A stretch of 64,000 nt of DNA, from NCBI GenBank assembly GCA_000989515.1, contig LBOM01000003.1, positions 111,833-175,832 of the forward strand, read 5' to 3'. The DNA comes from Candidatus Nomurabacteria bacterium GW2011_GWE1_32_28 (lineage in GTDB: Bacteria > Patescibacteriota > Minisyncoccia > Phycocordibacterales > UBA9973). The notes under the pieces were generated by a model. The model was given only the letters and a program-made list of their open reading frames with translations, did no database searches and had not been told where the DNA came from. How positions within the stretch are numbered: position 1 is the first letter of the stretch; each line of letters starts with the position of its first letter. Below are positions 12,444 through 42,206 of this stretch, piece after piece. A program made the translations under genes and the position numbers.

Positions 12444-12476
12444 ATTACGAATTATCAATTACGAATTACGAATTTA
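12444..12476. repeat. Heptad repeat (AATTACG orientation) between yebC and ruvC
   Basis: caattacgaattatcaattacgaattacgaatt followed by TAAAATATAC and the ruvC ATG 11 nt later. Confidence 0.8.
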
Positions 12477-21228: not shown

Positions 21229-21277
21229 TTAACAATTTCAAATTATGAATTATAAATTTAGAAATGTATTTGTATTT

Positions 21278-21312
21278 TAATTCGTAATTGATAATTCGTA
21301 ATTTGTAATTGA
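21278..21312. repeat. Heptad repeat between yidD and yidC (opposite orientation to the 12444 copy)
   Basis: tgtattttaattcgtaattgataattcgtaatttgtaattg, including the recurrent TGTATTTTAA flank. Confidence 0.8.
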
Positions 21313-22070: not shown

Positions 22071-22580
22071 ATGAATAAAAATGAAATTCAAAATTTAATA
22101 AAAGAACTTATAGAAAGGACCACAATATCTGTAAATAAAATTACCACAGATGAAGATAAGCCAGCCACTCTTCGTTCTGATCAAGACAATACTACGTGGT
22201 TTTCTGTGGAAGTAAATCAACCACATTATTTTTGGGATCGTGGAGGAGAAGCACTTTTTGCTATAAATCATTTAGTTCGCAGAATAATTGAAAACAAAAC
22301 TTCTCACAATGAAGAGTTAAACGAAAAACAACGTGGTCTTGGTATTCTGGTTGATGTTAATGGTTTTCAAAAGAAACGCATAGAGAATATTCATGCCACA
22401 GCACACATGATGGCAGAAAGAGCTAGATATTTTAAATCAAACATAGAGATTGATCCAATGCCAGCTTTTGAACGCAGGATAGTTCATGAATTTTTATCTG
22501 ACGCGACTGATTTGAAAACTGAATCACAAGGTGAGGGTTTTTCTCGTAGGGTAGTTATAAAGTACACGGGCTCAATTTAA
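22071..22580 (+). CDS. jag: Jag-like KH/R3H RNA-binding protein
   Basis: C-terminal R3H motif (RRIVHEFLSD...GEGFSRRVVIKY) in the canonical position after yidC. The start is taken at the ATG after the yidC stop. Confidence 0.75.
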   Translation: MNKNEIQNLIKELIERTTISVNKITTDEDKPATLRSDQDNTTWFSVEVNQPHYFWDRGGEALFAINHLVRRIIENKTSHNEELNEKQRGLGILVDVNGFQKKRIENIHATAHMMAERARYFKSNIEIDPMPAFERRIVHEFLSDATDLKTESQGEGFSRRVVIKYTGSI

Positions 22581-22650
22581 AATTACGAATTACGAATGAT
22601 CAATTGGGAATTCAAATTTAGGCATCTTTTTCAATTCGTAATTCGTAATT
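22581..22650. repeat. Inverted pair of heptad repeats forming a 17-bp-stem hairpin between convergent jag and the island's last gene
   Basis: AATTACGAATTACGAAT at 22581-22597 and ATTCGTAATTCGTAATT at 22634-22650 are perfect reverse complements, separated by 36 nt. Confidence 0.7.
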
Positions 22651-22682
22651 TGAAATTCTTAATTAATTAAAATAGATCTTAT

Positions 22683-24029
22683 TTATTTTGATTGTAGTTC
22701 CCAGAGATAAGAATCTTTTTTATTTATAAAAAATAGAAAATTTTCATCTTTATCTAATCCTAATTTTATACCATCTATCTCTTCCCCGTCCTCAACTGAA
22801 AGAGGGTCTATTATTTTTGTGGTAACTCCACTTTGAATATTTATTTTCCAGATTTCATCTGAGAAAGAAACTTCACCTTGATACCAAGAATCTGGATAAG
22901 TTAGATTATCTATATATTTAGGTACAGCACAATAAATAGTATCACTTTTGGATCCCCATGTACACTTTTCTGGTAGTGTCTTTAATCCGATCATATTATA
23001 ATCTCCTGTGCTTATATTAAAGACACTTAACGATAGGTTGTTGTCACCATAGAGAACTATTTCTCCGTTTGGGCTTGTTAAGGTAGTTAATCCATTTATT
23101 CCGCCCAATATTTTATCGAAGTCTTTTTTTTCTGTGTCTATTTTATACATATATCCAGGAACGTTGTATGAAGGTTTTGTTGTGACTGTAATTATTTTTT
23201 CATTAGGCCAGAAAGATAACCATTCTGTGAAAGATGAGTCAAATGCTTGAATTTTTGTATCTGATTGTAAAGATTGAATTATTCCAATTATATTATTTTC
23301 TACATTAAATAAATAAAATATTTTTTCTGTATTAGGAGAGATGCTTATATCAGAAACATTCTCTGGTAAAAATGAACCGTTTATTTCGTTCATTCCTATT
23401 GAATCTGCCCCTAAATATTCTTTTGGAAGAGTACCCATAAAAGTTTCTACTGTTTTATTATCTTTTTTAAAATATCTCATCATTATTGATTCTCCATTGT
23501 TTCCAAAAAAAGCATCATATACCTTAGGTATCATAGTAGAAGAGAATTTACGTTCATCTATTCTGTCTGCAAAAGTTTGATAAATATTTCCTGTAAATTT
23601 GTTTACATACCTTAATGCTGGTAAAAATTCTGTTGGTGGAGATATTGGTGTTGTTTCTACTTTTTCGATATTTGTTTTCTCTTCACCTGTATCGGTTGGT
23701 GTTGGGTTTGGATCTACTATGTTTTTAAATCTTTCTTTCGTAAATATTCCATAACCGGCTATTGGGAAGCTAGAAACCTTTTTTAATATTGAATTTTGAA
23801 TGTCTCCTTCTGATGTAGGTATATAACCAGAAACATCGACTGGTTGTGTTGTGTCTCCAGTGTTTGTATTTTTATTATTACCAAATGGTAAAAAATCTGA
23901 AAGGAAATTTATACTTTCTGTTACAACGCCACCTTGATTTGTTGGTTTATAAAAATAAAGAAATACAAAAGCACCGATTGTGATTATTAATAAAACTATT
24001 GTGAATAATATAATGTTTCTTTTTGACAT
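22683..24029 (-). CDS. Membrane-anchored secreted protein (N-terminal TM, Pro/Thr linker, beta-rich domain)
   Basis: 448 aa. Single N-terminal TM (ILFTIVLLIITIGAFVFLYFY), then a PTPTDTGEE linker. This is the first gene of the minus-strand island. Confidence 0.55.
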   Translation of the reverse strand: MSKRNIILFTIVLLIITIGAFVFLYFYKPTNQGGVVTESINFLSDFLPFGNNKNTNTGDTTQPVDVSGYIPTSEGDIQNSILKKVSSFPIAGYGIFTKERFKNIVDPNPTPTDTGEEKTNIEKVETTPISPPTEFLPALRYVNKFTGNIYQTFADRIDERKFSSTMIPKVYDAFFGNNGESIMMRYFKKDNKTVETFMGTLPKEYLGADSIGMNEINGSFLPENVSDISISPNTEKIFYLFNVENNIIGIIQSLQSDTKIQAFDSSFTEWLSFWPNEKIITVTTKPSYNVPGYMYKIDTEKKDFDKILGGINGLTTLTSPNGEIVLYGDNNLSLSVFNISTGDYNMIGLKTLPEKCTWGSKSDTIYCAVPKYIDNLTYPDSWYQGEVSFSDEIWKINIQSGVTTKIIDPLSVEDGEEIDGIKLGLDKDENFLFFINKKDSYLWELQSK

Positions 24030-24040
24030 AAAAATTAATT

Positions 24041-25417
24041 TTATTTAAAAGCCGAAGCACAAGCTGCTTTATCTCCAACCCAATCACCCTTGTTTGGATT
24101 TGCAGTAAGTAATTTTTTTGCTATGTTTAAGTTTGTCGCAGGATCTAATAATCTAGCCTTACAAGTATTATAAAGAGCTTCTTTTCCTGATAATAGACTA
24201 CACGTAAAACCACTAGTATATTTTGGTGCTATTGCGTCTTTTGATGATACTGGTCTATCAAACAAACCAACACAATCTGCTCCTGCAAGACTACCATTTG
24301 CTGCTAAATTAACCTGAAACAAACCAAAAGAAAAAGGTAGACTTTTTCCTGGTGGTTTACAATAGTCAGTACCACTACTAATAGGCCTACCCCCGCTTTC
24401 CATATTACAGATTTTTGACATAGCTGTTGCTGTTGCTGTATCGACTCCAAGAGCAGTGGTTAGATTTGTAACAGAACAAGGGCCTGATGTTAGTGGGGTA
24501 CAATTAATACTTTCACCACTTGCTTGTTTTGGATCATTTATACCTCTGTCATATAGAGGTTGTATTGTTATCTCTGCCTTAGGTAGATTATCCAAACAGG
24601 CGCTGAGCAATTGTGGATTTATTGTGTTTAAAATAAGGTAAGCACCCAATGCTATTAAAAGGCCGAATATCGCATTTTTTACTGTTTCTTTTCCAGCTTC
24701 TTTTCCTGATATTAATTCACTAGACATATACTCTACTCCCCCCATTGTGATCATTACCATGGCGAGTACTGCAGCCATACCAATGATTATTTTGATCATT
24801 ATGTTTAAATAGTTTCCAAACGGGCATGCATTTTTACTTGAATCTGTTTCAAATTCAGTTGGAAGTCCAGGTAAAGAAACCAGTGGAGTATATACTGTGT
24901 TTGTATCTATTCCTTTTCCATTATCTTTTATTGTTTCAGGTGCTGTACATACATTATTAATTATTTTTTCTGATGGGTCACAAACCTTTAGTGAAGTGGA
25001 GGCTGTATAAAAACCCTCGGATCCCTCTGTTGTTAAGGCTGTTGCTTCTATTTTTATGTCTCCAGAAAGTCCATCTGTGTTAAAACTAACATAGCAAGAT
25101 CTAACCCTTGGCGCTGTTGTTAATCCACTTGTGTTGGCTGAAATTGTGCATTTTGCATCTTCAGGTGTGAATCTAAGGTTGGTAAGCACCCCGGAGACAA
25201 TACCAAAAGAAATTGTTTCTCCACCAACAGGTGTAAAGATTTTAGCTGTTATTCTAGAACTCCCACCATTTATTACTGGTTGTTCTGCTTCTATTATAAA
25301 AGGAGTACTTTCATTTGGTTCTCCTGCATAAGTTTTATTAAAAGGAGTAAATAAACTAAATATAAATATTAGTAAATATGTAGAGGCTATTATTTTTTTA
25401 AATGTATTTAATTGCAT
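24041..25417 (-). CDS. Secreted protein with a TrbC/VirB2-pilin-like double-TM hairpin and a C-terminal SLT lytic transglycosylase-like (VirB1-like) domain
   Basis: Signal peptide. Central segment IIIGMAAVLAMVMITMGGVEYMSSELISGKEAGKETVKNAIFGLLIALGAYLIL has two hydrophobic helices with a short charged loop, as in conjugative pilins. The C-terminus has ICNMESGG...FSFGLFQVN, resembling the SLT E-S...GLMQ motif. Many Cys residues. Confidence 0.5.
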   Translation of the reverse strand: MQLNTFKKIIASTYLLIFIFSLFTPFNKTYAGEPNESTPFIIEAEQPVINGGSSRITAKIFTPVGGETISFGIVSGVLTNLRFTPEDAKCTISANTSGLTTAPRVRSCYVSFNTDGLSGDIKIEATALTTEGSEGFYTASTSLKVCDPSEKIINNVCTAPETIKDNGKGIDTNTVYTPLVSLPGLPTEFETDSSKNACPFGNYLNIMIKIIIGMAAVLAMVMITMGGVEYMSSELISGKEAGKETVKNAIFGLLIALGAYLILNTINPQLLSACLDNLPKAEITIQPLYDRGINDPKQASGESINCTPLTSGPCSVTNLTTALGVDTATATAMSKICNMESGGRPISSGTDYCKPPGKSLPFSFGLFQVNLAANGSLAGADCVGLFDRPVSSKDAIAPKYTSGFTCSLLSGKEALYNTCKARLLDPATNLNIAKKLLTANPNKGDWVGDKAACASAFK

Positions 25418-25422
25418 TATTT

Positions 25423-25484
25423 ATTCGTAATTAATTTTTTTGTATTTTAAATTCGTAATTCGTAATTGATAATTCGTAATTGAT
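25423..25484. repeat. Heptad repeat element upstream of the 24041-25417 gene
   Basis: ttttgtattttaaattcgtaattcgtaattgataattcgtaattgattt. In gene sense it reads ...AATTACGAATTACGAATTTAAAATACAAAA, resembling TTACGA-17nt-TAAAAT. Confidence 0.8.
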
Positions 25485-26474
25485 TTAAAAACTAACCTCT
25501 ATTTGTTTACTCATGCTTTGGAAAAGTGTATTTATATTGTTAATATCAATTTTAATTGTAGCATTTCCAGATTGTCCGGCTTCTGGTTTTATAGATAATA
25601 TATTTTTAGGATTTGGTGTTTCTATTTGTTCTTTATTTAAAAACCAATCAAACTTAAGACTTGAAGAATTTAAGTTTTTAGGAGAAAAAAAGTATGGTTC
25701 TATGGTAAGTATCTCTCCATTTGGGTTTATTCTGAATCCATTACTTAAAGCTGTTTCCCATCTTGTACCAGATTCTGGATCATTTTTATAAAAAATGATT
25801 TTAGGATTTGTTGTTTTTAGGGTTATTTTTCCAGAGGCATTTGTATATCCAGATATATCAGATACTTGTACTTCTATGACATTATCTTTATCTAGGTAGC
25901 TATTTATGAAAGTAAAAGAATTCTTACCCCACCCAGAAGATTTTGTCTGTATCTTGCCATCCTTTTTCCATGTGTAAGACAAATTGTTTATGTTTACTTT
26001 TCCATCTTGGTTTATCAAATTTGGTATTGCTGTTACTTTAAATGTTCCTTGACTTGGCGCTAATGCTTTTCCTTTATAAAATGGCGGGACATAAGAATCA
26101 GAGGCCTCCCATAGCATATCTACGTTTGCTGGGTTTATTGTTGTTGTTTTTAATATATTTTGTCCATCAATCGTATCTATTGATACAGACAAGATAGTAG
26201 AATATCCCATATCTTCCATCTTGAAATAAAAAGATTTTTTTCCAATGCCACTATTTTTTTCTTGACCATTTATTGACCAGACTATGTTTGCTTTATCAAG
26301 ATCGGTAGAGTAGCTGTTTAGTGTGGCAGTCACATCTTCTTTTGATTCTGGGTGTTCTGGTGAAATAGTTAAAACAAGATCTGTGCTACGTATTTGTGCA
26401 TTAGCAAAAAATCCTGCAAAAGCTATCATTAGTATGAGTGTAATTATTAAATTTTTATAATTTTTCTTCTGCAT
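25485..26474 (-). CDS. Secreted beta-rich protein
   Basis: 329 aa with an N-terminal signal peptide MQKKNYKNLIITLILMIAFAGFFANA. Confidence 0.5.
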   Translation of the reverse strand: MQKKNYKNLIITLILMIAFAGFFANAQIRSTDLVLTISPEHPESKEDVTATLNSYSTDLDKANIVWSINGQEKNSGIGKKSFYFKMEDMGYSTILSVSIDTIDGQNILKTTTINPANVDMLWEASDSYVPPFYKGKALAPSQGTFKVTAIPNLINQDGKVNINNLSYTWKKDGKIQTKSSGWGKNSFTFINSYLDKDNVIEVQVSDISGYTNASGKITLKTTNPKIIFYKNDPESGTRWETALSNGFRINPNGEILTIEPYFFSPKNLNSSSLKFDWFLNKEQIETPNPKNILSIKPEAGQSGNATIKIDINNINTLFQSMSKQIEVSF

Positions 26475-26493: not shown

Positions 26494-26596
26494 CTCGTAA
26501 TTAATTTAATTATATCATTCGTAATTAATAATTCGTAATTGACCTCCCCTTTTTCTTTTTTAAATTCGTAATTCGTAATTGTTAATTCGTAATTGA
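26494..26596. repeat. Extended heptad repeat tract (~100 nt)
   Basis: aaactcgtaattaatttaattatatcattcgtaattaataattcgtaattgacc...taaattcgtaattcgtaattgttaattcgtaattgatt. Confidence 0.8.
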
Positions 26597-26606
26597 TTAT
26601 ATATTA

Positions 26607-28445
26607 TTATTTTCCGTCTGCTTCTTCTAGGTCTTGTTTTGCTTTTTTTATGGACAAAATTTGAGAAGGATCAGATGTTATTATTTGGTCTTCTGTGTAG
26701 GAGGATATTATTTTTATAGCAACATGTTTTAATCCTGCAAAAAATATTCCTTCCCCTACCCCAGACTCTAAAAGAAGATATTTTTCTTCGTCGGTAAGAT
26801 TGAATGTCTTTTGAAGAATATCTATGGTTGTTGGAGACTGTTTTAAAAGAATCTGTATGGAAGAGTTTGTTATTATAGGAATACCATAAGGAGATTTCAT
26901 AAAGTCTGCTGCATCTTGTGTAATAGTAGAAAGACCTAAATAATATTTTCTACCTCTTTTTGCCATAGAGTATAAGAAAGAAGCTGTATCTTCTGATTTC
27001 ATCATCCACCATGCTTCATCTACAACCAACAGGCGTTTTTTTAGATTTTTTCGTATTGTTATCCATATATAGTGCATGACTATATACATTGCAACTGGTT
27101 TTAATTCGTCTTCCATGTCTCTCACAGAAAATACTACAAATTTCTTATTTATGTCTACATTTGATGGTCTATTTAAAAAAGTAGACCAAGTGCCTTTTGT
27201 ATATTTTACCAATCTTTGCATAATAGAATCACTTCCCTCCATACCAGCTAGCACCATCTCAAAATCTGAAAGGAGCGGTGGTTCTATATTTGAAAAATTT
27301 GAATCAGGGGTTATGTCTTTCATTGCATAGGTCTCTGAAATAGCACGGTCAACCATTGAGTCTTCTTCTGGTGAGAGTCCTCCAAGCATTAGTCTAAAGA
27401 GCCCTACTAAGTTTATAATGTTTGACCTTAGTACATCTTCATTTGATTCGTCTTCACGTGGTATTGGTAAATCAAAAGGATTAATGTGGTGGTCTGAAGA
27501 AAGAGAAATATTGAAATACCTTCCACCGACAGCTTCAGCCAAATATTCATATTCCCTTTCAGGGTCTATTACTATTACATCTACGTCAAACATTAAAGAT
27601 CTTAATATTTCTAATTTTGTTGCATAACTTTTTCCTGAACCAGATTTTGCAAATGTTACAGAGTTGTAGTTTTCTAATGAAAATCTATCGAAAATAACTA
27701 AACTTGAATTGTGTCTATTTACACCATACAGTATTCCATTATCAGAAGTTAGATCAAAGGAAACAAATGGAAATACACTAGAAAGAGGCTCTGAATTTAA
27801 TTTCTGGTGAATATTTAGTAGATCATTACCGAGAGGCATTACACTTTTAAAACCTTCTTCTTGTTGGAAAATTGCTGGTTTAATATATATTAATTTTGAT
27901 TCTAGTATTGATTTTATTTCATTTTCAATTTTAAAAAGTTCGAGTTCATTGTCAGCATAGACTGTTATATAAATACTAACGTCAAACATTTTTTGTTGTG
28001 CTTGAATCAGGTTATCTCTCAAGCCTTCTAGGTCTTGGTATGCAGTATCAAGCATTGGGTCACGAACCATACCTTTCTTTTCACGTACATTTATTTGACT
28101 TTGTACCTCAGCTACCTTTTTTTGAAATTGTCGTAGTGCTAAAGATGTATCTATTGGGTGAATAAATATTGAAACATCAAAAACTTTATCTAGATTAATT
28201 ATTGGAGAAAACCAATTGTCACTTAAGAATCTAGGATAAGAAATAATAAAAAAAGTACGAGCTATCTTATCACCCAGATTAATAGATTTTGACTCTATTT
28301 TTAATGCCGAAGGGGCGACTATGTCTTGGAGCTCTAATTTTGCTGATTCATAGATTTCTTCTGGTAGTACTGCTAAAACTGAAGCATTTGCTCCTTTGTT
28401 TGTATCTGTATTCTTTTTTCCTAATAAGTTATCTAAAAATGACAT
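26607..28445 (-). CDS. VirB4/TrbE-family type IV secretion ATPase (C-terminal ATPase part)
   Basis: 612 aa. Walker A VTFAKSGSGKSYATKL and VirB4-type Walker B RLLVVDEAWWMM. Overall VirB4/CagE architecture. Confidence 0.8.
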   Translation of the reverse strand: MSFLDNLLGKKNTDTNKGANASVLAVLPEEIYESAKLELQDIVAPSALKIESKSINLGDKIARTFFIISYPRFLSDNWFSPIINLDKVFDVSIFIHPIDTSLALRQFQKKVAEVQSQINVREKKGMVRDPMLDTAYQDLEGLRDNLIQAQQKMFDVSIYITVYADNELELFKIENEIKSILESKLIYIKPAIFQQEEGFKSVMPLGNDLLNIHQKLNSEPLSSVFPFVSFDLTSDNGILYGVNRHNSSLVIFDRFSLENYNSVTFAKSGSGKSYATKLEILRSLMFDVDVIVIDPEREYEYLAEAVGGRYFNISLSSDHHINPFDLPIPREDESNEDVLRSNIINLVGLFRLMLGGLSPEEDSMVDRAISETYAMKDITPDSNFSNIEPPLLSDFEMVLAGMEGSDSIMQRLVKYTKGTWSTFLNRPSNVDINKKFVVFSVRDMEDELKPVAMYIVMHYIWITIRKNLKKRLLVVDEAWWMMKSEDTASFLYSMAKRGRKYYLGLSTITQDAADFMKSPYGIPIITNSSIQILLKQSPTTIDILQKTFNLTDEEKYLLLESGVGEGIFFAGLKHVAIKIISSYTEDQIITSDPSQILSIKKAKQDLEEADGK

Positions 28446-28448
28446 CTT

Positions 28449-28476
28449 CTTAATTCATAGTTCCTAATTGTTAATT
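28449..28476. repeat. Heptad-family repeat separating the two VirB4 parts
   Basis: ttaattcatagttcctaattgttaattcttaattga occupies the 32-nt gap between the stop of the N-terminal part (28478) and the ATG of the ATPase part (28445). The two parts are in different frames. Confidence 0.7.
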
Positions 28477-28477
28477 C

Positions 28478-29143
28478 TTAATTGATTTCAATTTTTCCCT
28501 CTAATTCTCCAGGGTTAAAAACTTTGTAGAATACTTCTACTACTTCTTCTGTTCCCAGCTGTGCTGATTTTATACCACAACGTGAAAGACCTTGTTGTAT
28601 TACACTCACTCTTTGTTCTAGTTGTGATCTTTTTTCTTCAAAATCAAGTTGGTTTTTCATTTCTTCTTCCTTTTTATTTCTTTTTGAAAACAAATTTGTA
28701 AACATTCCAGATTTTGGACCGAGGTTTGTGTGAGTATAAGGAATCACAACAAAGAAATTCTTTGTCATTATACTTACAGACTCCGTAAAGTTTTTTATAA
28801 ACTCCATATATTCTTTTGTTTGTAATTTGAGTAATGGTTCACTTTGTACTTTCATCCTATTTTCTAAAAGCAAGAGATATCTTCTGATGTCTAATTTTCT
28901 TGATTGTATGGATATTTGTACAGAAAAATCTAATGTGTTTAAAAAGTTTTGAAATTGAAGTATCGTTGCTCTTTGTTCATCGTCTGATTTTAAAGACAAA
29001 TTTACTGAATTTGCAAGTATAATTGCCCTGATTCCTCCATCTTTTAAAACGACAATACCATCACGGACTTCCTTGATTGGTACAAATTCTTGAGTTGGTT
29101 TTGCATTTATCATTTTTTTAAGTCTAGGACATCTAAGCTCCAA
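28478..29143 (-). CDS. VirB4 N-terminal domain-like protein (split from the ATPase part, or a genuine two-gene arrangement)
   Basis: 221 aa. PIKEVRDGIVVLKDGGIRAIILANSVNLSLKSDDEQRA matches the conserved VirB4 N-terminal region. Together with the next ORF it totals 833 aa, a typical VirB4 length. Confidence 0.55.
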   Translation of the reverse strand: MELRCPRLKKMINAKPTQEFVPIKEVRDGIVVLKDGGIRAIILANSVNLSLKSDDEQRATILQFQNFLNTLDFSVQISIQSRKLDIRRYLLLLENRMKVQSEPLLKLQTKEYMEFIKNFTESVSIMTKNFFVVIPYTHTNLGPKSGMFTNLFSKRNKKEEEMKNQLDFEEKRSQLEQRVSVIQQGLSRCGIKSAQLGTEEVVEVFYKVFNPGELEGKIEIN

Positions 29144-29520
29144 GCTAAATCTCTTAATTTGCTTCCACTTAATTGTCTTCTATCATTCGTAATTATCTTC
29201 TCTTTATTCGTAATTCGTAATTGTTCATTCGTAATTTTATTCATATGTCTTTTCCAGATATAAAGTTTGTCTTGCATTGCGAATTTCAATCCAGATTCAA
29301 TCATATCAATGAAAGGTTTACCATTTGGATGATAAAATGTGAGCAAGGCTGATAATCCTGCAATTATTAGTATTGGTATGGCACCGAGCCATATTCCTAA
29401 TGATTTAAATAATATATAACATATTCCAGCACCACCTGCTAAATAGGCAAATTCTTTAAAAGTGAATGGGCCAAAAATTTTGTCTTCTATTTCTAAAAAT
29501 TGTGGAACCTTGAATTGCAT
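29110..29520 (-). CDS. VirB3-like small membrane protein, with C-terminus extended by translated heptad repeat
   Basis: 136 aa. Two TM helices (EFAYLAGGAGICYILFKSLGIWLGAIPILIIAGLSALLTF) lie directly upstream of VirB4. The C-terminal ...ITNEQLRITNKEKIITND is encoded by AATTCGT repeats and overlaps the next gene. Confidence 0.4.
   Translation of the reverse strand: MQFKVPQFLEIEDKIFGPFTFKEFAYLAGGAGICYILFKSLGIWLGAIPILIIAGLSALLTFYHPNGKPFIDMIESGLKFAMQDKLYIWKRHMNKITNEQLRITNKEKIITNDRRQLSGSKLRDLAWSLDVLDLKK
29184..29237. repeat. Heptad repeat inside the 3' end of the VirB3-like ORF
   Basis: cattcgtaattatcttctctttattcgtaattcgtaattgttcattcgtaatttt. Confidence 0.8.
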
Positions 29521-29601: not shown

Positions 29602-29949
29602 TTAATCTAGAGACTTGATAAAACCTGATAATAACTTAGAAATCTCTATGCTTAAATTATACATTATTTTGAAATCTTTTTCATGGATATACTTTAATTC
29701 TAATCCCAAATCTAACATAGATCTAGTTTCTCCAGTAGATCCTTTTGCTATAAAAAGAAAGTTTCTTAATTCTTTATTTGTTCTTCTTTCAAATCCTTCT
29801 GCAATATTGTTCATTATCGAGACAGAGGCTCTTTCTATTTGATTTTTAAAACTGAAATCTTTACATGTTTTGAATACACTATAGACAAGAAGTGTTAATT
29901 CCTTTCCTTTTTTCCAAGCTATGATATCTTCAAATTTTTCTATTTTCAT
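29602..29949 (-). CDS. Four-helix-bundle protein of the 23S rRNA IVS / Avd family
   Basis: 115 aa. ASVSIMNNIAEGFERRTNKELRNFLFIAKGSTGE matches the PF05635-type signature (ASxSIxxNIAEG...F..A.GS). Confidence 0.65.
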   Translation of the reverse strand: MKIEKFEDIIAWKKGKELTLLVYSVFKTCKDFSFKNQIERASVSIMNNIAEGFERRTNKELRNFLFIAKGSTGETRSMLDLGLELKYIHEKDFKIMYNLSIEISKLLSGFIKSLD

Positions 29950-29990: not shown

Positions 29991-30716
29991 TTACTCTATG
30001 GGCATTCTATAAGGGTCAACTCGTGTAAGTTCAGGTTTATTTCTTTCAGAAATTTTAGTAACATTTGGAATTGAATGATTCGTCTCAACTGTTGGAATAT
30101 TAAAAGATCCTGAAAGTTTTTGTGACAATAATGAAGGTGTATCTTTCTTTTTTTCTTCTAAATTTGTAATTGGTAATTGACCATTCGTAATTGATTTATC
30201 TTTTCCATCTGTTATTTCTAATTCGAAATTTGTAATTCCTAATTGTTTTTTATCTTTATCTTCATTCGTAATTCGTAATTCGTAATTGTTAATTGATTGT
30301 GTGTTTTCAATATGTTTTAACATTTCCTCCCTGCTTTCTATTAAATTTTCATTTATGTTTTCTGTGTTTTTGTTAGTTTTTTTATTTTTTTCAACACGCA
30401 TTACAAGTTCTTCGCGGATTTTTCTAAAAACTTTTTCGTTTATTTCATTTACTAGTTCATCTATTTGAGCTTTTGGTAGATTCATTCTAGTCTCCAATTC
30501 TTTTGGATAGTTTTCTGTATTAGTGAGCCCACAAAGCAATAATTCTGTTTCAATTTCAAGATTTTCTAGTTGTTCAAAGCTATATCCTTTTTCTTCTCGC
30601 ATTTTTATTATTATTGATTTCCAATCAACTGCATCAATAGCTTCTATCGTTTCTTTTGGCAATTCTTCTCTAGCTTTATTTATTTTTATTTGTAGCAAAT
30701 CTATTGTTGTATTCAT
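29991..30716 (-). CDS. Hypothetical acidic protein with a C-terminal segment encoded by heptad repeats
   Basis: 241 aa. C-terminal NNYELRITNEDKDKKQLGITNFELEITDGKDKSITNGQLPITNLEEK is translated from AATTCGT-family repeats at 30161-30296. Confidence 0.5.
   Translation of the reverse strand: MNTTIDLLQIKINKAREELPKETIEAIDAVDWKSIIIKMREEKGYSFEQLENLEIETELLLCGLTNTENYPKELETRMNLPKAQIDELVNEINEKVFRKIREELVMRVEKNKKTNKNTENINENLIESREEMLKHIENTQSINNYELRITNEDKDKKQLGITNFELEITDGKDKSITNGQLPITNLEEKKKDTPSLLSQKLSGSFNIPTVETNHSIPNVTKISERNKPELTRVDPYRMPIE
30161..30296. repeat. Three patches of heptad-family repeats (AATTNNT units) inside the 29991-30716 ORF
   Basis: aaatttgtaattggtaattgaccattcgtaattga ... tctaattcgaaatttgtaattcctaattg ... 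cattcgtaattcgtaattcgtaattgttaattgattg. Confidence 0.8.
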
Positions 30717-30740: not shown

Positions 30741-33272
30741 TTATTTTTTTTCTTCTTTTATCCCTGAAAGAATTTTATTAGATGCTTCTCTTTCACCAGC
30801 AAATGAATGTTGCCCACCGGACATTATGAAACTAATAGTTTGTGCCACAGGAGTTAGGTTTGACTTAGCAAAATTTTCTCTTCTTGTTCTGTTTTCTGAA
30901 ATAATTAAGTTTTCAGCTATTTTTAGTGCTTTTTCAGCATCCTTTATAGGTCTTTCAGCAGTCTTGAGATTAGTTTTTGCTTCATCTAAACCTCCTACAC
31001 CAGAAGTAAGGTTGTCTCTTATATTAACTTTAGCAGTTCTATTGGCTCTAGCGGTATCTGCTTCGGTGCTTGCAGCACCAAACTTGTCTATTGTATCTTT
31101 TAATTCTCTTTCAGCTTTTATAACTTCTCTATCTGCTAAAGCAACATCTTTTTCTCTGTCTGCTATATCTTTTGTATATTGTGTTATATTAGCTTGGGTT
31201 GTTAAATCAGATTTTGCTTTATCAAGATCATTTTGTTTAGCGTGTACATCTTGTTTTAGTGTTTCATCTTCACCAACTTCTAATTCTTTTGCTCTCTTTT
31301 GTCTCTTTTCTACTTGGTCTGCTCGTCTCTTTACAAAACCACCCTCATTTTGTTTACCAAAAGTATTTACCTTAAGTCCTGTTGAAGCTAAATCTTTACC
31401 AGCAATTTTAATTCCACGAGCATCAAAACTTCCACTGCCAGTAAATTTACTAAAGCTTCTAAGTTGTTTAGCACCAAAAACTCCTCTAGCTTCTGCTGAT
31501 TTTAGTGTAGCTGAGTTTGCCATTGCAGCACCAGCTCTACCAAGTGTTGCTCTTCCTGCCATTGCCATTCCACCCGTAGCAGCACCGAGAGCTACGCCAC
31601 CTATCATTTTTGCTCCAGTCATTACAGCCTTCCCCATTTCACCAGAATATTTTACTACTAGTGACTTTGACTTTGTTAGGAGCATCATAAGTATAATAAA
31701 AGGTATTGTTATGCTCATCACATGCTGCATTGCATTCTGCCAAGAACTCATATCTGGATTATCTGCATATTTTACGACACTAGTAAGAAAACCAGTAAAC
31801 ATTACTATTATATAAAGCATAAAAGTGAATAGTGGTGCGAGGAATGCATTTTTTAGTAGATCATCCCACCATTCTTTGTGTCCAAAACCAGGAATATCAA
31901 AAGGTACTGTATATGAAACAAAAGCAAGTGGAGAGAATATCATAGAAATCCAAAGTGAAACAACTCTAGCCACAAAAAGAATAGCAATAGAGAAAAATAT
32001 ATATGCAGCATAGAGAGTGATGGCAATAAGTAAAAGTACTATAAAAATAGCATAACCCAATCCAAGGCCAGCGTTGTATGCATCTGAGACAATAGACTGA
32101 GGATTAAATTTACTAATTAGCCCTACTGAGATGGACTTTTGTCCACCAGCTTCAGCTTCAGATGTGTTTCCTTTTGTATCTTTTGAAACTATATTATTAT
32201 AAAATATTTTTGCCAGGATGTTTGATCCATCTATGACGATTTTTGTAGTGAATAAACTGAAATTTATAATTAGAGCTATTATAACAACGTATCCAATTAA
32301 TTTTTTATTATCTGTGACATTTAGATTAAGTATTGTCTTTATAGCCACGTAAAGAAGAGCAACTATGAAGAATATATTTGCTACATCTCTCACAGCACTC
32401 CATGCTTTTTCAATAAATATATTGCTATAAGAGGAGCTATTTGTTGCATAATAAACAAAAAAATCTAAAAAAGATCCTGCTAACATACCAACAAAAAAAG
32501 ATGCTTTCCAAATATAGTTAAATCCTTCTAAAATACAACCTCCAACGTTAACTGGATAAACAAAACTACAATTAAAACTTTCTGTTACATCTGTTCCAGT
32601 ATTACTGTATGAGTTTGATGTATCTGTAAAATTATTTTTTTCATCAGTAGGATTATATGCAGTTGTTGTGAATTCTTGTGATTTTATTATATCCTCATTA
32701 GTAAAATCAACCCAGTTCCAAATACTTTGTTTGGTTCCTGTCCCTTCATAAACCTCGAGTGATAATATATATGTAGTATTTGGTTTAAATGGAAATTTAT
32801 CTGTTCCAGTTTGTAAGTTTATGATTTCATTACTTGATGTACCCAACAAAAAAGGCAAAGCTAGTTCTCTCCAAGATAGACATTTTGGATCGTTTGGGTC
32901 ACTTTTTTCTTTATAACATATAAAGACTCCTTCTTGAGATATATTTTCTATTGCACCCTCTATTAAAAGGTAAGCATCATATATTGGTACTTTATTAGTA
33001 TCAATTTCACGTTGTGTATTAAATTCTTTATCATTAGTATCTTCGCTAATAATAACGCCTGCACTAAAGTTTACTGAGTTAGAACTTATAGAATTAATTT
33101 TTATATAAGAATTTTTATCTAAATATTCTGCTATATTTATTGCTTCAGCTTTTTTTATTTCTATTCCGAGGGTTAAATATTTATCACTTATTTTAATGTT
33201 TAAAGAAATAGGCACTATAAAAATAGCTACCATGACTATCGATATTAGAATTTTTGATAAATATTTTTGCAT
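30741..33272 (-). CDS. Large polytopic membrane protein, VirB6/TrbL-like candidate (signal/TM, extracellular domain, >=6 TM, C-terminal Gly-rich coiled-coil)
   Basis: 843 aa. TM cluster FFVGMLAGSFLDFFVYYA...IALIINFSLFTTKIVIDG...AIFIVLLLIAITLYAAYIFFSIAILFVARVV...PLFTFMLYIIVMFTGFL, then Gly/Ala-rich GAKMIGGVALGAATGGMAMAG and a coiled-coil tail. The VirB6 assignment is by topology only. Confidence 0.4.
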   Translation of the reverse strand: MQKYLSKILISIVMVAIFIVPISLNIKISDKYLTLGIEIKKAEAINIAEYLDKNSYIKINSISSNSVNFSAGVIISEDTNDKEFNTQREIDTNKVPIYDAYLLIEGAIENISQEGVFICYKEKSDPNDPKCLSWRELALPFLLGTSSNEIINLQTGTDKFPFKPNTTYILSLEVYEGTGTKQSIWNWVDFTNEDIIKSQEFTTTAYNPTDEKNNFTDTSNSYSNTGTDVTESFNCSFVYPVNVGGCILEGFNYIWKASFFVGMLAGSFLDFFVYYATNSSSYSNIFIEKAWSAVRDVANIFFIVALLYVAIKTILNLNVTDNKKLIGYVVIIALIINFSLFTTKIVIDGSNILAKIFYNNIVSKDTKGNTSEAEAGGQKSISVGLISKFNPQSIVSDAYNAGLGLGYAIFIVLLLIAITLYAAYIFFSIAILFVARVVSLWISMIFSPLAFVSYTVPFDIPGFGHKEWWDDLLKNAFLAPLFTFMLYIIVMFTGFLTSVVKYADNPDMSSWQNAMQHVMSITIPFIILMMLLTKSKSLVVKYSGEMGKAVMTGAKMIGGVALGAATGGMAMAGRATLGRAGAAMANSATLKSAEARGVFGAKQLRSFSKFTGSGSFDARGIKIAGKDLASTGLKVNTFGKQNEGGFVKRRADQVEKRQKRAKELEVGEDETLKQDVHAKQNDLDKAKSDLTTQANITQYTKDIADREKDVALADREVIKAERELKDTIDKFGAASTEADTARANRTAKVNIRDNLTSGVGGLDEAKTNLKTAERPIKDAEKALKIAENLIISENRTRRENFAKSNLTPVAQTISFIMSGGQHSFAGEREASNKILSGIKEEKK

Positions 33273-33310: not shown

Positions 33311-33356
33311 TCTGTATTTTAAATTCGTAATTCGTAATTGTTAATTCGTAATTGAC
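33311..33356. repeat. Heptad element with conserved flank TTCTGTATTTTAAATTCGTAATTCGTAATTGTTAATTCGTAATTGAC
   Basis: The 50-nt string is identical to 34236-34282 and closely related to 40769-40800, 26556-26596 and 25441-25470. It lies ~45 nt upstream (gene sense) of the 30741-33272 start. Confidence 0.85.
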
Positions 33357-34183
33357 TTACCTTTTTTCTTCTCCAAGAAGTTATCTTTTGTAACCACTGA
33401 ATGTCCTAACCTTTTTTCTAATTTTTTACGTGCTCCACCAGCTATATTTCCTCCTGCTTTTGCATCAGATTTTAATTTTGAAATTCCTTTGGAATGCTCT
33501 TTCTTGTGTATTTCTGTCGTTGCTGTTTCAGCAAGCATATTTAACACAAGTTCAAGATTCGTCATATTATCTCTCAGACTTTGTTTTTTTAATTCTTTAA
33601 GATTTTTATATTCTTTTGTCGTGAGTCCTGCCCAAGCCTTCGTGATCTCATCTGTTAGTATAGCAAATTCTTTGCCTTCCTTTACTCCACGGTTTTCCCA
33701 TTCATCAGTTAATGATTTTCGGATTTCAATACTTTTTAATCTTTGATTTATCCAGTTTTGACTATATCCTTTTTGTAGATATGTTTTTAACGCACGATTT
33801 ATAGAAAGCTCTGGGTCTGCTGTTTCTTCTAATCTCTCATAGCCTACACGAGCAAGCCAGAGTTTAAATGGTTCAGCTTTTGGTGATGGAATAGATTGAA
33901 TTAAACGGAACATTACTTCTGTGTCAGCTACATCAGTAATATAATATTTACCATCTGATGCTTGCATTTTCAGATGGTGACATTTTGTCACCATCTCACT
34001 ACCTTCGTCACGAAGTCTTTGAGCTAGCTTGTTCCAGTATTTTCTTGCATCAATACTTTCTGTTAAAACTTTAACTACATCAACAACCGAAAAATACCAT
34101 AATTCTTTTTCAGCATCCCAGTGTCTGCGAATTTCTTTGTTGTCAAAAATTGCTATTTTATTTTTTGTATTTTTCTTTTGCAT
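33341..34183 (-). CDS. Bro-N / DinD-family protein (phage antirepressor-like, DNA-damage-inducible protein D family)
   Basis: 280 aa. N-terminal Bro-N pattern KIAIFDNKEIRRHWDAEKELWYFSVVDVVKVLTES. The C-terminal half parallels E. coli DinD. Paralog of 62223-63065. Confidence 0.65.
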   Translation of the reverse strand: MQKKNTKNKIAIFDNKEIRRHWDAEKELWYFSVVDVVKVLTESIDARKYWNKLAQRLRDEGSEMVTKCHHLKMQASDGKYYITDVADTEVMFRLIQSIPSPKAEPFKLWLARVGYERLEETADPELSINRALKTYLQKGYSQNWINQRLKSIEIRKSLTDEWENRGVKEGKEFAILTDEITKAWAGLTTKEYKNLKELKKQSLRDNMTNLELVLNMLAETATTEIHKKEHSKGISKLKSDAKAGGNIAGGARKKLEKRLGHSVVTKDNFLEKKKGKSITN

Positions 34184-34235: not shown

Positions 34236-34282
34236 TTCTGTATTTTAAATTCGTAATTCGTAATTGTTAATTCGTAATTGAC
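34236..34282. repeat. Heptad element (identical copy of 33311-33356)
   Basis: ttctgtattttaaattcgtaattcgtaattgttaattcgtaattgactta. Confidence 0.85.
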
Positions 34283-39647: not shown

Positions 39648-39778
39648 ACAATTCGTAATTGATTTTATTATATCATTCCTAATTACTAATTTGTAATTAG
39701 TTTCCCACTTTTTTGTATTTTCAATTCGTAATTTGTAATTGACTTCCACTCTTCTTTTTTTTCTAATTCGTAATTGAC
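39648..39778. repeat. Extended heptad repeat tract (~130 nt) between island genes
   Basis: caattcgtaattgatttt...cattcctaattactaatttgtaattag...tgtattttcaattcgtaatttgtaattgacttcc...ttctaattcgtaattgacc. Confidence 0.8.
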
Positions 39779-40768: not shown

Positions 40769-40800
40769 TTCTGTATTTTAAATTCGTAATTCGTAATTGA
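40769..40800. repeat. Heptad element with TTCTGTATTTTAAATTCG flank
   Basis: ttctgtattttaaattcgtaattcgtaattga. Confidence 0.85.
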
Positions 40801-41226: not shown

Positions 41227-42174
41227 CTACTCTTTTTTGTTGATATCTATGATTTTTGTGAGATTGATCCAATCTGAGAGAGTTAAATTTTCTGCTCTTT
41301 TGTTTCCAAGAGATTCTAACTTAATCATCGAGTCAAGGGCGGAGGCAATTCCTCCGCCCTTGAGAAATGTTTTTAAATTTGAGGAGAGTTTTTTTCTTTT
41401 ATGGGCAAAGCCAGTATGTATTATTTCCCAAAATTTCTCTTCATTTAGTTTATTTTTGATAAAAATTTTTCTTGAGATGTTTTTTATAGCGATTATTGCG
41501 GAATCTACCTTTGGGGCAGGAGAAAAATACCTTGAAGGCACCTTCATAATTATTTTAGGGCTCCCATATGCCTTTACTGATATGGATAAAATACTTTCCT
41601 TGCCGTCGCGTGCGACTATTCTCTTTGCTACTTCGTTTTGTACCATCAAGATCATCATCTCTGGTTGTTCTTTTTCTGAAAGAAACTTTTTCAATATGGC
41701 ACCAGTTATATTATAGGGAATATTAGCGATAATTTTATAAGAAAAATAATGAGGAATATTATTTTTAAAACCACACATATTTCCCTGCTGGGAAATTGCT
41801 ATGCTCGGCTCGACAGCCTGCGCAATGCTTTTAAAAACAACATTCCTCATTATTTTTCTAATTTGTAATTTGTAATTTGTAATTTGTAATTTTAGTATGT
41901 CATCATTTATTAAAATTAATTTCTGGTTTTTTATTTCTTCAGAGAATTTAATTTTTAGAAGTTCATAAAGTTCGTAGTCTTTTTCTATGGCTACAACACA
42001 GCCTGCTTTTTCTAAAAGTTTTTCTGTTAAGGCACCCTTTCCGGGTCCTATTTCTAGTATAATATCTCGAGAAGAAACTTCTCCAGCCTCTACTATTTTT
42101 TTTAATGCGATAGTAGATTTTAAGAAATTTTGACCTAATGATTTTTTTGCTTTGTGTATTTTCTGCATTTTCAA
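41227..42174 (-). CDS. rsmA: 16S rRNA (adenine1518/1519-N6)-dimethyltransferase
   Basis: SLGQNFL...ILEIGPGKGALTEKL... is the KsgA family signature. It has two foreign in-frame segments: a palindrome at 41333-41363 (encodes LKGGGIASAL) and an (AATTTGT)n repeat at 41858-41892 (encodes LKLQITNYKLQI). Confidence 0.9.
   Translation of the reverse strand: MKMQKIHKAKKSLGQNFLKSTIALKKIVEAGEVSSRDIILEIGPGKGALTEKLLEKAGCVVAIEKDYELYELLKIKFSEEIKNQKLILINDDILKLQITNYKLQIRKIMRNVVFKSIAQAVEPSIAISQQGNMCGFKNNIPHYFSYKIIANIPYNITGAILKKFLSEKEQPEMMILMVQNEVAKRIVARDGKESILSISVKAYGSPKIIMKVPSRYFSPAPKVDSAIIAIKNISRKIFIKNKLNEEKFWEIIHTGFAHKRKKLSSNLKTFLKGGGIASALDSMIKLESLGNKRAENLTLSDWINLTKIIDINKKE
41333..41363 (-). repeat. 31-bp GC-rich palindrome inside ksgA
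   Basis: TCAAGGGCGGAGG-CAATT-CCTCCGCCCTTGA is a perfect 13-bp inverted repeat. Confidence 0.8.
41858..41892 (-). repeat. (AATTTGT)5 heptad tandem repeat, in-frame in ksgA
   Basis: ctaatttgtaatttgtaatttgtaatttgtaatttt. Confidence 0.8.
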
Positions 42175-42206
42175 TTCGTAATTCGTAATTCGTAATTGTT
42201 AATTTG
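42173..42206. repeat. Heptad repeat between uvrD end and ksgA start
   Basis: caattcgtaattcgtaattcgtaattgttaatttg begins immediately after the ksgA start codon. Confidence 0.8.

Follow-up and report, generated by a model that had tools for sequence, protein, structure and literature searches.

Patescibacteria have a type IV secretion system (T4SS) that is the only monoderm one with VirB2-like pilins and is without DNA-transfer parts (PMC10633639, PMC12857230). In Southlakia epibionticum, the pilins SEML1_0014-0019 are separate, short PF18895 proteins, and separate lysozyme-like/Cys-peptidase and M15 genes adjoin virB4 (PMC10633639, PMC12102498). In this one system studied, the T4SS cluster and its pilins, with neither relaxase nor coupling protein, are reported to be essential for epibiotic growth (PMC10633639), and a 2025 survey found the peptidase and lysozyme homologues beside virB4 to be essential as well (PMC12102498). 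The same survey reported that most VirB2-bearing genomes have no recognisable VirB1, and it reviewed the need of monoderm T4SSs for wall hydrolases anchored in the membrane, for example PrgK and the TraG of pIP501 (PMC12102498).

The locus studied here lies in a 64-kb window, i.e. the whole stretch of DNA that we analysed. It shares with the described Patescibacteria VirB2-like pilins the hairpin family, the operon type (VirB4, TrsD, PrgI and a VirB6-like protein, with no relaxase seen) and the oriC-proximal location. However, the described pilins are about 125-140 aa long and are often encoded in arrays of 2-11 genes, whereas here one gene of 458 aa stands alone and has two additions, an Ig-like domain behind the signal peptide and an enzyme behind helix 2 of the hairpin. 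The diderm TrbC/VirB2/TraA pilins (PF04956) likewise have a signal peptide and two hydrophobic helices joined by a short basic loop, but they are essentially a hairpin of about 70-120 aa when mature, without globular ectodomains. Some of them are cyclised head-to-tail; in the fusion, a conserved Cys pair flanks the hairpin and could form a disulfide equivalent.

The VirB1-type and monoderm hydrolases (PrgK of pCF10, TraG of pIP501, CwlT of ICEBs1, SEML1_0006/0007) are also membrane-tethered and encoded in T4SS operons, and they have enzyme classes in common with the fusion family (lysozyme/SLT-like, NlpC/P60 or CHAP-like, M15). Nevertheless, each of them is a protein in its own right, held by an ordinary TM anchor at the N-terminus and often equipped with a tandem of two enzyme domains, whereas the fusion has one enzyme, a pilin module as anchor, and an enzyme class that varies between orthologues. 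Finally, a conserved N-terminal delivery part, a junction motif and C-terminal exchange with sharp breakpoints are also found in CdiA-CT, Rhs-CT and T6SS/T7SS effectors, and the exchanged domains of the fusion are peptidoglycan enzymes, as in Tae/Tge-type effectors. Unlike polymorphic toxins, the fusion has no cognate immunity gene, and a T4SS pilin module, encoded in a core operon of the chromosome, serves as its scaffold.

No description of the fusion, or of the swapping of its enzyme end, was found in the searchable literature, outside which most subscription journals lie. The first-pass annotation had stated that no such architecture was known: this holds for the searchable literature but not for the databases, where the architecture is common (at least 409 species-representative genomes). 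The C-domain has 1307 cluster representatives, and some family members are already named "pilin" by NCBI.

The fusion gene and its operon

The product of the fusion gene is identical to UR25_C0003G0155, listed as hypothetical in a Candidatus Nomurabacteria MAG. The gene, its parts and its neighbours are the following.

24041..25417, minus strand: whole gene, pilin-module/lysozyme-like fusion, 458 aa, ATG start, stop codon at 24041-24043
25325..25417, minus strand: predicted Sec signal peptide, aa 1-31 (MQLNTFKK, hydrophobic core, TYA|G), read from sequence
24911..25324, minus strand: N-terminal Ig-like beta-sandwich ectodomain, aa 32-169, 4 Cys (model and structure matches)
24557..24910, minus strand: pilin module, aa 170-287 (profiles, conservation and model)
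24722..24823, minus strand: hairpin helix 1, aa 199-232 (AlphaFold2)
24620..24712, minus strand: hairpin helix 2, aa 236-266 (AlphaFold2)
24530..24556, minus strand: linker, aa 288-296, cassette breakpoint (model and orthologue comparison)
24044..24529, minus strand: C-terminal lysozyme-like (Pfam SLT_3-related) domain, aa 297-458, 8 Cys, exchangeable cassette
24395..24400, minus strand: invariant Glu340-Ser341, candidate catalytic acid (conservation and model)
24308..24334, minus strand: invariant FSxGLFQxN block, aa 362-370 (conservation)
22683..24029, minus strand: downstream partner of 448 aa with an N-terminal TM and without family match, found in 72/72 related loci
25485..26474, minus strand: secreted upstream partner of 329 aa without family match, found in 77/77 related loci whose flank was long enough
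26607..28445, minus strand: VirB4-type ATPase (family matches to TraG P-loop, AAA_10 and DUF87)
28478..29143, minus strand: TrsD/TraC-like protein, resembling the N-terminal region of VirB4
29110..29520, minus strand: PrgI-family (VirB3-like) protein
30741..33272, minus strand: polytopic membrane protein with 7 hydrophobic segments, probably VirB6/TrbL-like

The operon is chromosomal, lies beside oriC and has the order PrgI, TrsD-like, VirB4, 329-aa gene, fusion gene and 448-aa gene. The position of the fusion gene was kept in all the species-representative loci with enough flank (72/72), and VirB4 was upstream in 72/72 related loci. The product of 30741..33272 is 48.5% identical to that of a syntenic gene in another locus (L002), which itself has a faint TrbL_3 match. 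In the promoter and terminator scan of the operon, counts were equal to the shuffled expectation, and family searches identified no protease in the conserved operon. A PBP1A gene is located in the same oriC neighbourhood.

Besides the pilin module, the mature protein (about 427 aa) includes a 138-aa N-domain and a 162-aa C-domain. A crude hydropathy scan identified three hydrophobic segments, starting at aa 8 (the signal), 200 and 245. AlphaFold2 modelled a helix at residues 3-23 of the signal-peptide region, which had a mean identity of 53% among six syntenic orthologues. In the same comparison the N-domain was hypervariable (25%), and in the family it is optional, with 27-400 aa lying upstream of the pilin module. 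Its structure matches were CARDB, PapD-like domains and the conjugative-transposon lipoprotein 4lba (E about 4e-4). The whole protein, used as a single-sequence query against PDB sequences and NCBIfam, had no match.

The first-pass annotation had read the product as a secreted protein with many Cys residues, probably disulfide-bonded. The amino acid composition is in agreement with it, and the VirB4, PrgI and TrsD-like neighbours link the protein to a T4SS. The 14 Cys are 3.06% of the fusion protein, above the 95th percentile (2.1%) of the window ORFs of at least 200 aa (median 0.52%). All of them fall in predicted extracytoplasmic parts and in even numbers: four in the N-domain, two flanking the hairpin and eight in the C-domain. 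As in a VirB1-like protein, a domain of putative peptidoglycan activity is encoded inside a T4SS operon, and the signal peptide and the outside topology are predicted.

The pilin module and the lysozyme-like domain

The pilin module contains, in order, YTPLxxLPG, Cys198, helix 1, the Lys239 loop, helix 2, INPQLL, Cys274 and, as the junction motif, CLDxLPxAxIxI, and AlphaFold2 modelled the helices (aa 199-232 and 236-266) as long and antiparallel. The module HMM gave 187 bits on the fusion ORF, well above what chance would yield, and nothing else in the 64-kb window exceeded 6 bits. Against Pfam T4SS_pilin (PF18895), the query alone reached 19.5 bits (E 0.001; gathering score 26.6 bits), and its 73%-identical homologue P0002 reached 33.7 bits. 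The same family matched 59 of the 61 homologues (best E 7e-11), and also 50/53 and 73/77 (species representatives) relatives; the matches to TrbC/VirB2 (PF04956) were weak but recurrent (20/61). Furthermore, a stand-alone pilin of the same subfamily (L072, 157 aa) ends at the module boundary, within the juxtamembrane motif. The membership of the query in PF18895 thus appears convincing by transitive homology, and the hairpin proposed in the first-pass annotation as that of a conjugative pilin was borne out.

The layout is that of VirB2/TrbC pilins (signal peptide read from sequence, two hydrophobic helices, short loop), as is the context, a T4SS operon with PrgI (VirB3-like) and VirB4; the size is not, the mature protein being about 427 aa long. 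Across 80 species-representative loci, 77 hairpin ORFs were complete and extended C-terminally by 100 aa or more (138-308 aa), and only one was a short plain pilin.

Within the protein, conservation is highest in the module, which has a mean identity of 68% among the six syntenic orthologues against 25% for the N-domain, and Y176, L179, Y203, G213, K239, G252 and P268 are invariant. This conservation argues for specific interactions and not for a passive anchor. Cys198 and Cys274 are nearly invariant: both were present in 99/206, and the tabulated classes without the first were also without the second. This suggests that the pair could be a disulfide clamp at the base of the hairpin rather than a cleavage site.

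In the C-terminal part, the ES and GLFQ motifs were found exactly as quoted in the first-pass annotation (ICNMES and, at aa 362-370, FSFGLFQVN). The structured domain described there as SLT-like is about 162 aa long (297-458) and follows a disordered linker, whereas 190 aa had been stated. E340, S341, D351, F362, S363, G365, L366, F367, Q368 and N370 are invariant across 61 homologues, and the Glu-Ser pair and the GLFQxN block are also kept in 70 more distant relatives. The model of the domain is confident (pLDDT 87.6) and places Glu340 at the C-terminal end of helix 62-76 (domain numbering).

On the query C-domain, SLT_3 (PF18896, "Lysozyme like domain") scored 14.0 bits (E 0.07), below its gathering score of 27 bits. 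The family matched 12/61 close relatives (E<0.01) and 34/70 distant ones (E<0.001). Three of the latter, P0186, P0187 and P0219, exceeded the curated cut-off (29.9-36.4 bits), and all 70 had been retrieved by the query-subfamily profile with E below 1e-25. On this transitive profile evidence the C-domain probably belongs to Pfam SLT_3, in line with the lysozyme/SLT-like assignment made from the sequence alone.

The GH23-type motifs, E340-S341 at the helix end followed by G365-L-F-Q368, are invariant, and SLT (PF01464) gave no significant match, with weak ones in 2/61 and 1/70 relatives. The top five of 177,635 PDB sequences were c-type lysozymes (E 0.14-0.5; 0.04 with a longer profile), and with the longer profile the best matches included alpha-lactalbumins. 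With hhalign, the similarity of the C-domain was not significant either to c-type lysozymes (P 0.004, probability 8%) or to goose lysozyme (P 0.06). In the structure search for an SLT fold, named in the annotation as a check that could refute it, all the Foldseek E-values were above 0.2, and the named matches, although weak, were muramidases, SLT domains and tail lysozymes (human lysozyme E 1.8, TM 0.48 on target; MltF SLT domain E 3.3).

The C-domain shares with SLT_3 and GH22 proteins a Glu-Ser motif of catalytic type and a GLxQ(I/V)N block. Its weak alignment with GH22 runs collinearly from one end of the domain to the other and takes in several Cys as well as the W...C block at the C-terminus. 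Conversely, it differs in scoring below the SLT_3 cut-off, in a 35-residue insertion that lies between the sheet and the C-terminal helices, and in the residue at the position of hen lysozyme Asp52, which is Ser363 in the HMMER and hhalign alignments. Of the GH22 catalytic pair Glu35 and Asp52, the Glu is therefore conserved and the Asp is absent. Considering the non-significant hhalign similarity, we do not claim membership in GH22 (c-type lysozyme/alpha-lactalbumin). Long SLT_3 proteins without the hairpin, of 700-1165 aa, also exist; considered as possible VirB6-like fusions, they had no BLAST similarity to any cluster protein.

Exchange of the C-terminal enzyme

The C-terminal enzyme is an exchangeable cassette, a point that goes beyond the sequence-only view of the first-pass annotation. 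The C-domains of 78 orthologues fell into 12 sequence clusters. Among the species-representative orthologues, the other recognised C-domains were NlpC/P60 (17), M15_4 (7), VanY (7), YkuD (5) and SLT_2 (4), and more rarely Amidase_5 (3), Extensin-like_C (2) and Amidase_2 (1); all the recognised alternatives act on peptidoglycan. Orthologues that carry other enzymes cease to be homologous right before the linker at aa 288-296, which identifies it as the cassette breakpoint; this linker is the distal portion of a disordered, low-confidence stretch in the AlphaFold2 model (aa 277-296).

The swaps were recent and precise. Pilin modules 98%, 92% and 88% identical carry different cassettes, and the cassette type did not follow the relatedness of the modules (median 54.9% in either class). 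In one orthologue pair, the DNA is about 87% identical up to the junction motif, the C-domain is unrelated, and the downstream sequence is 95% identical. The DNA breakpoints of the swaps coincide with the junction motif on one side and the stop codon on the other; the loci L044 and L045 are homologous again from 2-5 nt beyond the stop codon, so that no further gene could fit in between.

Thus, a conserved N-terminal region and junction are combined with unrelated C-terminal domains swapped between close relatives, which is the exchange pattern of polymorphic toxins. An immunity gene linked to the cassette, also typical of those toxins, was not found at the compared loci. The downstream 448-aa gene was considered as the cognate immunity gene and rejected, because it does not co-vary with the cassette, its full-length identity staying at 59-63% regardless of the enzyme.

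Possible roles of the fusion protein

We read the protein, with moderate confidence, as a VirB2-like pilin-module subunit that carries the VirB1-like wall enzyme of the system, effectively a VirB2-VirB1 fusion. After removal of the Sec signal peptide, the two hydrophobic helices would enter the membrane as a hairpin whose short loop, with its Lys, is cytoplasmic; the Ig-like N-domain and the disulfide-rich C-domain would then both be outside the membrane, which is the topology of VirB2/TrbC pilins at their membrane stage. The highly conserved hairpin could dock the protein at or in the T4SS, and the lysozyme-like C-domain, with Glu340 as general acid, could cut glycan strands locally and so make way for the apparatus through the wall. 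In sister species, the same slot is occupied by enzymes for the cutting or remodelling of other peptidoglycan bonds, which would have been exchanged by recombination at the junction motif. We lean towards a local target, the cell's own envelope, rather than the wall of a host.

In the Nomurabacteria/Paceibacteria subfamily sampled, with relatives in at least 409 species-representative genomes, the locus suggests that VirB2 and VirB1 are one protein, which would physically link the pilin to cell-wall cutting, and that the cassettes turn over rapidly at the enzyme end. More generally, it exemplifies a domain exchange in the style of polymorphic effectors, with a pilin as scaffold and no immunity genes. 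The cassettes are small soluble domains, expressible and assayable on defined peptidoglycans, and the comparison of cassette type with host or community is a natural experiment on whose wall is targeted.

The role at the pilus tip suggested in the first-pass annotation was not supported. Another reading, possible but rather unlikely, is that the subunits polymerise into, or are extruded as, a VirB2-type filament displaying the variable Ig-like binding domain and the exchangeable peptidoglycan enzyme, with which an epibiont would bind and open the host wall; cassette exchange would then adapt it to the chemistry of that wall or to inhibitors from the host. The N and C termini both point outwards in VirB2/TraA filaments, which makes fusions at either end topologically possible; a basic residue faces the lumen in VirB2-type pilins, and Lys239 in the hairpin loop is invariant. 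The recent and precise swaps, uncoupled from module relatedness, and the hypervariable N-domain are coherent with this reading, as is the essential role of the T4SS and pilins in the epibiotic growth of Southlakia, where relaxase and coupling protein are absent. The fusion is also the only pilin-module gene in the 64 kb, and extended hairpin ORFs outnumber plain pilins 77 to one, although more distant PF18895 pilins could be encoded elsewhere in the genome. For a protein that stays in the membrane, the linker of about 20 residues could not reach the wall of another cell, so host targeting would require extrusion. However, by estimate, two globular domains of about 15-18 kDa on each subunit would crowd a VirB2-type helical lattice. 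Moreover, no pili have been seen in this clade, a cognate immunity or inhibitor gene is absent at the loci, and the nearest substrate is the cell's own wall. If true, such a filament would be a new functional class of pilus, enzymatically armed and polymorphic, and a first mechanistic handle on the relaxase-less T4SS in the Patescibacteria lifestyle.

It is quite improbable that the product is a precursor polyprotein, in which cleavage on one or both sides of the module would free a short pilin and a soluble wall enzyme, and possibly the Ig-like domain. Trimming at both ends is known for TrbC/VirB2 pilins, and for TrbC the processing of the two termini is established. Here, the disordered stretch at aa 277-296 follows the conserved NPQLLSACLDxLPxAxIxI, which is kept whatever enzyme comes next, as expected of a processing site, and within which the stand-alone pilin L072 ends. 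This motif can equally be explained as a recombination or structural junction, the family searches retrieved no protease in the conserved operon, and the co-occurrence of Cys198 and Cys274 suggests a disulfide clamp instead.

Very improbable, in our opinion, is a non-catalytic lysozyme-fold C-domain that binds glycan or another ligand without cleavage, like alpha-lactalbumin. The Ser at the Asp52 position and the alpha-lactalbumins among the best PDB matches would fit, but SLT-type lytic transglycosylases normally work with a single catalytic Glu, the 61 sequences show no variation in Glu340-Ser341 or in the GLFQxN block, both of which are kept in the 70 distant relatives, and the alternative cassettes are bona fide enzyme families.

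Hardly credible, and already disfavoured, is a housekeeping wall enzyme for growth or division on a generic two-helix anchor, incidentally adjacent to the T4SS: the cassettes do include remodelling enzymes (YkuD, VanY) and the PBP1A gene is nearby, but for such enzymes it is not normal that nearly identical alleles differ by a swap between unrelated folds, the synteny inside the T4SS operon is absolute (72/72, 77/77 and 72/72), and the most conserved part of the protein is a hairpin homologous to T4SS pilins.

A pilin module within the fusion protein

The reading frame at 24041-25417 (-) encodes a protein of 458 aa, as the first-pass annotation had claimed, and the sequences quoted there are found within it. 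The window is AT-rich (GC about 30%). A hypothetical protein with exactly this sequence is present in a Candidatus Nomurabacteria MAG, so the window comes from the Patescibacteria/CPR. AlphaFold2 modelling of the whole protein, from an alignment of 56 sequences, gave a mean pLDDT of 80 and the following parts:

aa 3-23, signal helix
aa 40-158, beta-sandwich, then linker
aa 199-232 and 236-266, two long antiparallel helices
aa 277-296, low-confidence stretch
aa 297-458, alpha/beta domain (C-domain)

In a crude hydropathy scan, hydrophobic segments begin at aa 8, 200, and 245; the signal peptide and the topology are predicted. The protein is indeed Cys-rich: its 14 Cys make up 3.06% of the residues, compared with a median of 0.52% in the window. 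Every one falls in a part predicted to be extracytoplasmic, and each part has an even number of them (4, 2, and 8).

Homology to relatives splits into three blocks, the best conserved being aa 170-287, the pilin module that holds the hairpin. Among six syntenic orthologues, the module had a mean pairwise identity of 68%, the signal peptide 53%, the N-domain 25%, and the C-domain 18%. The query alone scored 19.5 bits on the Pfam T4SS_pilin model, under the 26.6-bit cut-off; in three sets of homologues, the model was matched by 59/61, 50/53, and 73/77 proteins (E down to 7e-11), and TrbC/VirB2 was also matched by 20 of the 61. Judged through these homologues, the hairpin is a pilin module of the T4SS type, and its earlier description as pilin-like (TrbC/VirB2-type) holds. 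Furthermore, the related locus L072 encodes a stand-alone pilin from this subfamily, 157 aa long, which terminates just past 'INPNLLNVLI'; on this basis, aa 170 to ~277 correspond to a complete pilin and the enzyme is an addition.

Two nearly invariant residues, Cys198 and Cys274, flank the hairpin and co-occur: both are present in 99/206 hairpin proteins, and the tabulated classes without the first are also without the second. A disulfide between them may clamp the base of the hairpin, in concept similar to the head-to-tail cyclisation of some VirB2/TrbC pilins. The module HMM found no second copy within the 64-kb window, which is part of the genome. In two related loci (L060:5611-6618 and L079:5287-5979), a second hairpin-containing ORF lies ~1.4 kb downstream of the first, one with a long N-domain and the other with a 92-aa Cys-rich tail; therefore, small pilin-module arrays occur in the clade.

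The enzyme end and its exchange

The C-terminal region had been described as 190 aa long and SLT-like. It is present, but the folded C-domain measures ~162 aa. Across 61 homologues, E340, S341, D351, F362, S363, G365, L366, F367, Q368, and N370 are invariant, as are several Cys and W446. In a confident model of the domain (pLDDT 87.6), a helix has Glu340 at its C-terminal end, an arrangement shared with lysozyme-type folds. On Pfam SLT_3, the query alone scored only 14 bits. A profile of the query subfamily retrieved 1307 cluster representatives at E ≤ 0.001, the domain being always C-terminal; among the 70 most distant hits listed, 34 matched SLT_3 (best E 6.8e-9), three of them exceeding Pfam's cut-off. 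When the subfamily profile was compared to 177,635 PDB sequences, five animal c-type lysozymes (GH22) ranked top, with E 0.14-0.5 (0.04 with a longer profile); their alignments were collinear in two blocks and placed the invariant Ser at the position of hen lysozyme Asp52. Hhalign comparisons of the C-domain with GH22 and with goose lysozyme did not reach significance. Foldseek gave no significant hit for the C-domain, and its named non-significant hits were almost all muramidases, SLT/LT_GEWL domains, and tail lysozymes. Because of the invariant residues, the SLT_3 matches of distant relatives, and the weak lysozyme similarity, we file the C-domain, by way of its relatives, as a putative divergent member of the lysozyme-like SLT_3 domains in which a single acid is conserved; it may be either a hydrolase or a lytic transglycosylase.

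A relaxed hhalign alignment with c-type lysozyme was collinear over the whole domain and matched Cys to hen Cys30/Cys115 and Cys64/Cys80, with weak statistics (P 0.004; profile E 0.04-0.5). A bacterial relative of c-type lysozymes is thus only a lead. Six long proteins (P0172, P0177, P0180, P0186, P0187, and P0194; 770-1165 aa) end in an SLT_3-like domain and have several hydrophobic segments, two of which immediately precede the domain in some cases; they are without a recognisable pilin module and have no BLAST similarity to the window's cluster proteins.

Homologues sharing only the N-domain and the hairpin carry NlpC/P60, VanY, YkuD, SLT_2, SLT_4, or Amidase_5 as a replacement, and the five alternative-enzyme versions located were all (5/5) in the same syntenic slot. 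Of the hairpin ORFs in 80 loci, 77 complete ones extend 138-308 aa beyond the module, and their recognised C-terminal domains are peptidoglycan-active without exception:

Recognised C-terminal domains, number of ORFs
SLT_3-like (own C-domain HMM), 17
NlpC/P60, 17
Peptidase_M15_4, 7
VanY, 7
YkuD, 5
SLT_2, 4
Amidase_5, 3
Extensin-like_C, 2
Amidase_2, 1

The C-domains form 12 sequence clusters. The median module identity was 54.9% both for same-cassette and for different-cassette pairs, so cassette type is uncoupled from pilin-module relatedness. Modules 98% identical carry unrelated cassettes (M15 and an unrecognised domain), and the same is seen at 92% (YkuD and VanY) and at 88% (SLT_3-like and NlpC/P60). 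Two related loci, L044 and L045, are 87% identical in DNA across the upstream gene and on into the fusion gene as far as the junction motif 'CLNKLPEAxVT'; they share no DNA identity over the C-domain, and identity resumes, at 95%, no more than a few bases from the stop codon. On these sequence comparisons, the enzyme end of the fusion protein is a cassette. The flanking genes track genome divergence; since full-length identity of the downstream gene stays at 59-63% with any cassette, no immunity-type gene travels with the cassette.

Patescibacteria were already known to have VirB2-like pilins, and monoderm T4SSs to have wall hydrolases; both domain models are present in Pfam, and some members are named 'pilin' by NCBI. 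The literature searched gave no description of the pilin-enzyme fusion or of the exchange of its enzyme cassette. A 2025 survey infers that VirB1 is dispensable (PMC12102498).

The T4SS gene cluster and a proposed role of the fusion

On the same strand, the gene order is VirB6-like, PrgI-family, TrsD/TraC-like, VirB4, 329-aa gene, fusion gene, and 448-aa gene, and the cluster adjoins jag, yidC, rnpA, dnaA, and dnaN. It matches the oriC-proximal, relaxase-poor T4SS described across Patescibacteria (PMC12102498). A relative is encoded in at least 409 species-representative genomes; among 80 species-representative loci, restricted to those with enough flank, the expected positions were found as follows:

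26607-28445, virB4, upstream of the fusion gene, 72/72 loci
25485-26474 (-), 329-aa gene, 77/77 loci
22683-24029 (-), 448-aa gene, 72/72 loci
jag, 62/64 loci

The separate TrsD/TraC-like gene (28478-29143), which resembles the N-terminal region of a VirB4, directly precedes virB4 and shares 34 nt with the end of the PrgI gene; L002 and the P0112 locus show this arrangement too.

We lean slightly towards a VirB2-like subunit that bears the wall-active enzyme of the T4SS (a VirB2-VirB1 fusion) and acts locally. This is supported by a fusion-based argument: in the T4SS locus of Southlakia epibionticum, the component classes fused here are encoded separately, with genes for a lysozyme-like/Cys-peptidase protein and for an M15 peptidase next to virB4, and with six PF18895 pilins, all of them short. 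The Southlakia T4SS cluster, pilins included, is essential, and the 2025 survey reports that the peptidase and lysozyme homologues are essential too (PMC12102498). The strong hairpin conservation points to specific docking or assembly and away from a passive anchor. The protein would be retained in the membrane and open the wall of the cell that makes it, the role that hydrolases play in monoderm conjugation systems. Extrusion or polymerisation of the protein, with action on a host wall, seems unlikely. The fast turnover of cassettes, together with an Ig-like N-domain that is hypervariable, speaks for interaction with something variable; the short linker and no sign of a filament speak for local action. 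That the protein is a processed precursor is quite improbable, and the remaining readings are more improbable still.

Other genes lie inside the cluster. Two encode a '23S rRNA intervening sequence protein' (four-helix-bundle) and a Bro-N protein (29602-29949 and 33341-34183), which could be regulators or mobile-element remnants; an ORF6N-domain gene occupies a comparable place in the syntenic P0112 locus. An 809-aa secreted protein (34283-36712) with a Trp-rich periodic stretch (…GSWENGTWIAEIWENNTWIPTAWMDGAWTPVSWVDDAWTPGTWVAGVWIPG…) had no family match.

The contig JAMPXW010000001.1 (276,871 bp; L002 / L035) was deposited as 'Burkholderiales bacterium'. It shows the full Nomurabacteria-type synteny (PrgI, TraC-like, VirB4, fusion gene, jag, yidC, dnaA, dnaN, PBP1A), its yidC is 77% identical to that of the window, and the label is probably a taxonomic error. 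Several TPA assemblies labelled 'Candidatus Saccharibacteria' look like similar mislabels.

A heptamer array in the window

A tandem heptamer array, (ATTACGA)n, occurs at ~23 sites of the window, typically in the 32-nt form ATTACGAATTAWCAATTACGAATTACGAATTT, which has 55 overlapping matches (with as many as 3 mismatches allowed) where 0.21 were expected. Most arrays lie 6-90 nt before a start codon, in the orientation of the gene, including most T4SS genes and the fusion gene (32 nt before its ATG). The array is nearly absent from 85 related loci (exact match in 2). It may serve as a promoter/operator specific to the lineage, or be a small repeat element.

25449-25480, 26515-26600, 28451-28482, 29204-29235, 33321-33352 (-), example sites
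34247-34278, 39680-39739, 40780-40797, 42172-42203 (-), example sites
12444-12475 (+), example site
7024-7055, inside polA
30160-30293, inside a 241-aa ORF
41859-41890, inside rsmA
57622-57653, inside a 714-aa ORF
22575-22599 (+) / 22632-22663 (-), convergent pair (inverted repeat) between the 3' ends of jag and the 448-aa gene
21235-21252 (+) / 21278-21309 (-), convergent pair (inverted repeat) upstream of yidC

The arrays inside ORFs are short inserts in otherwise ordinary proteins, translated in frame as (L)RITNYEL-type 7-residue repeats (3 x 7 nt = 21 nt). The convergent pairs could form hairpin or terminator-like structures.
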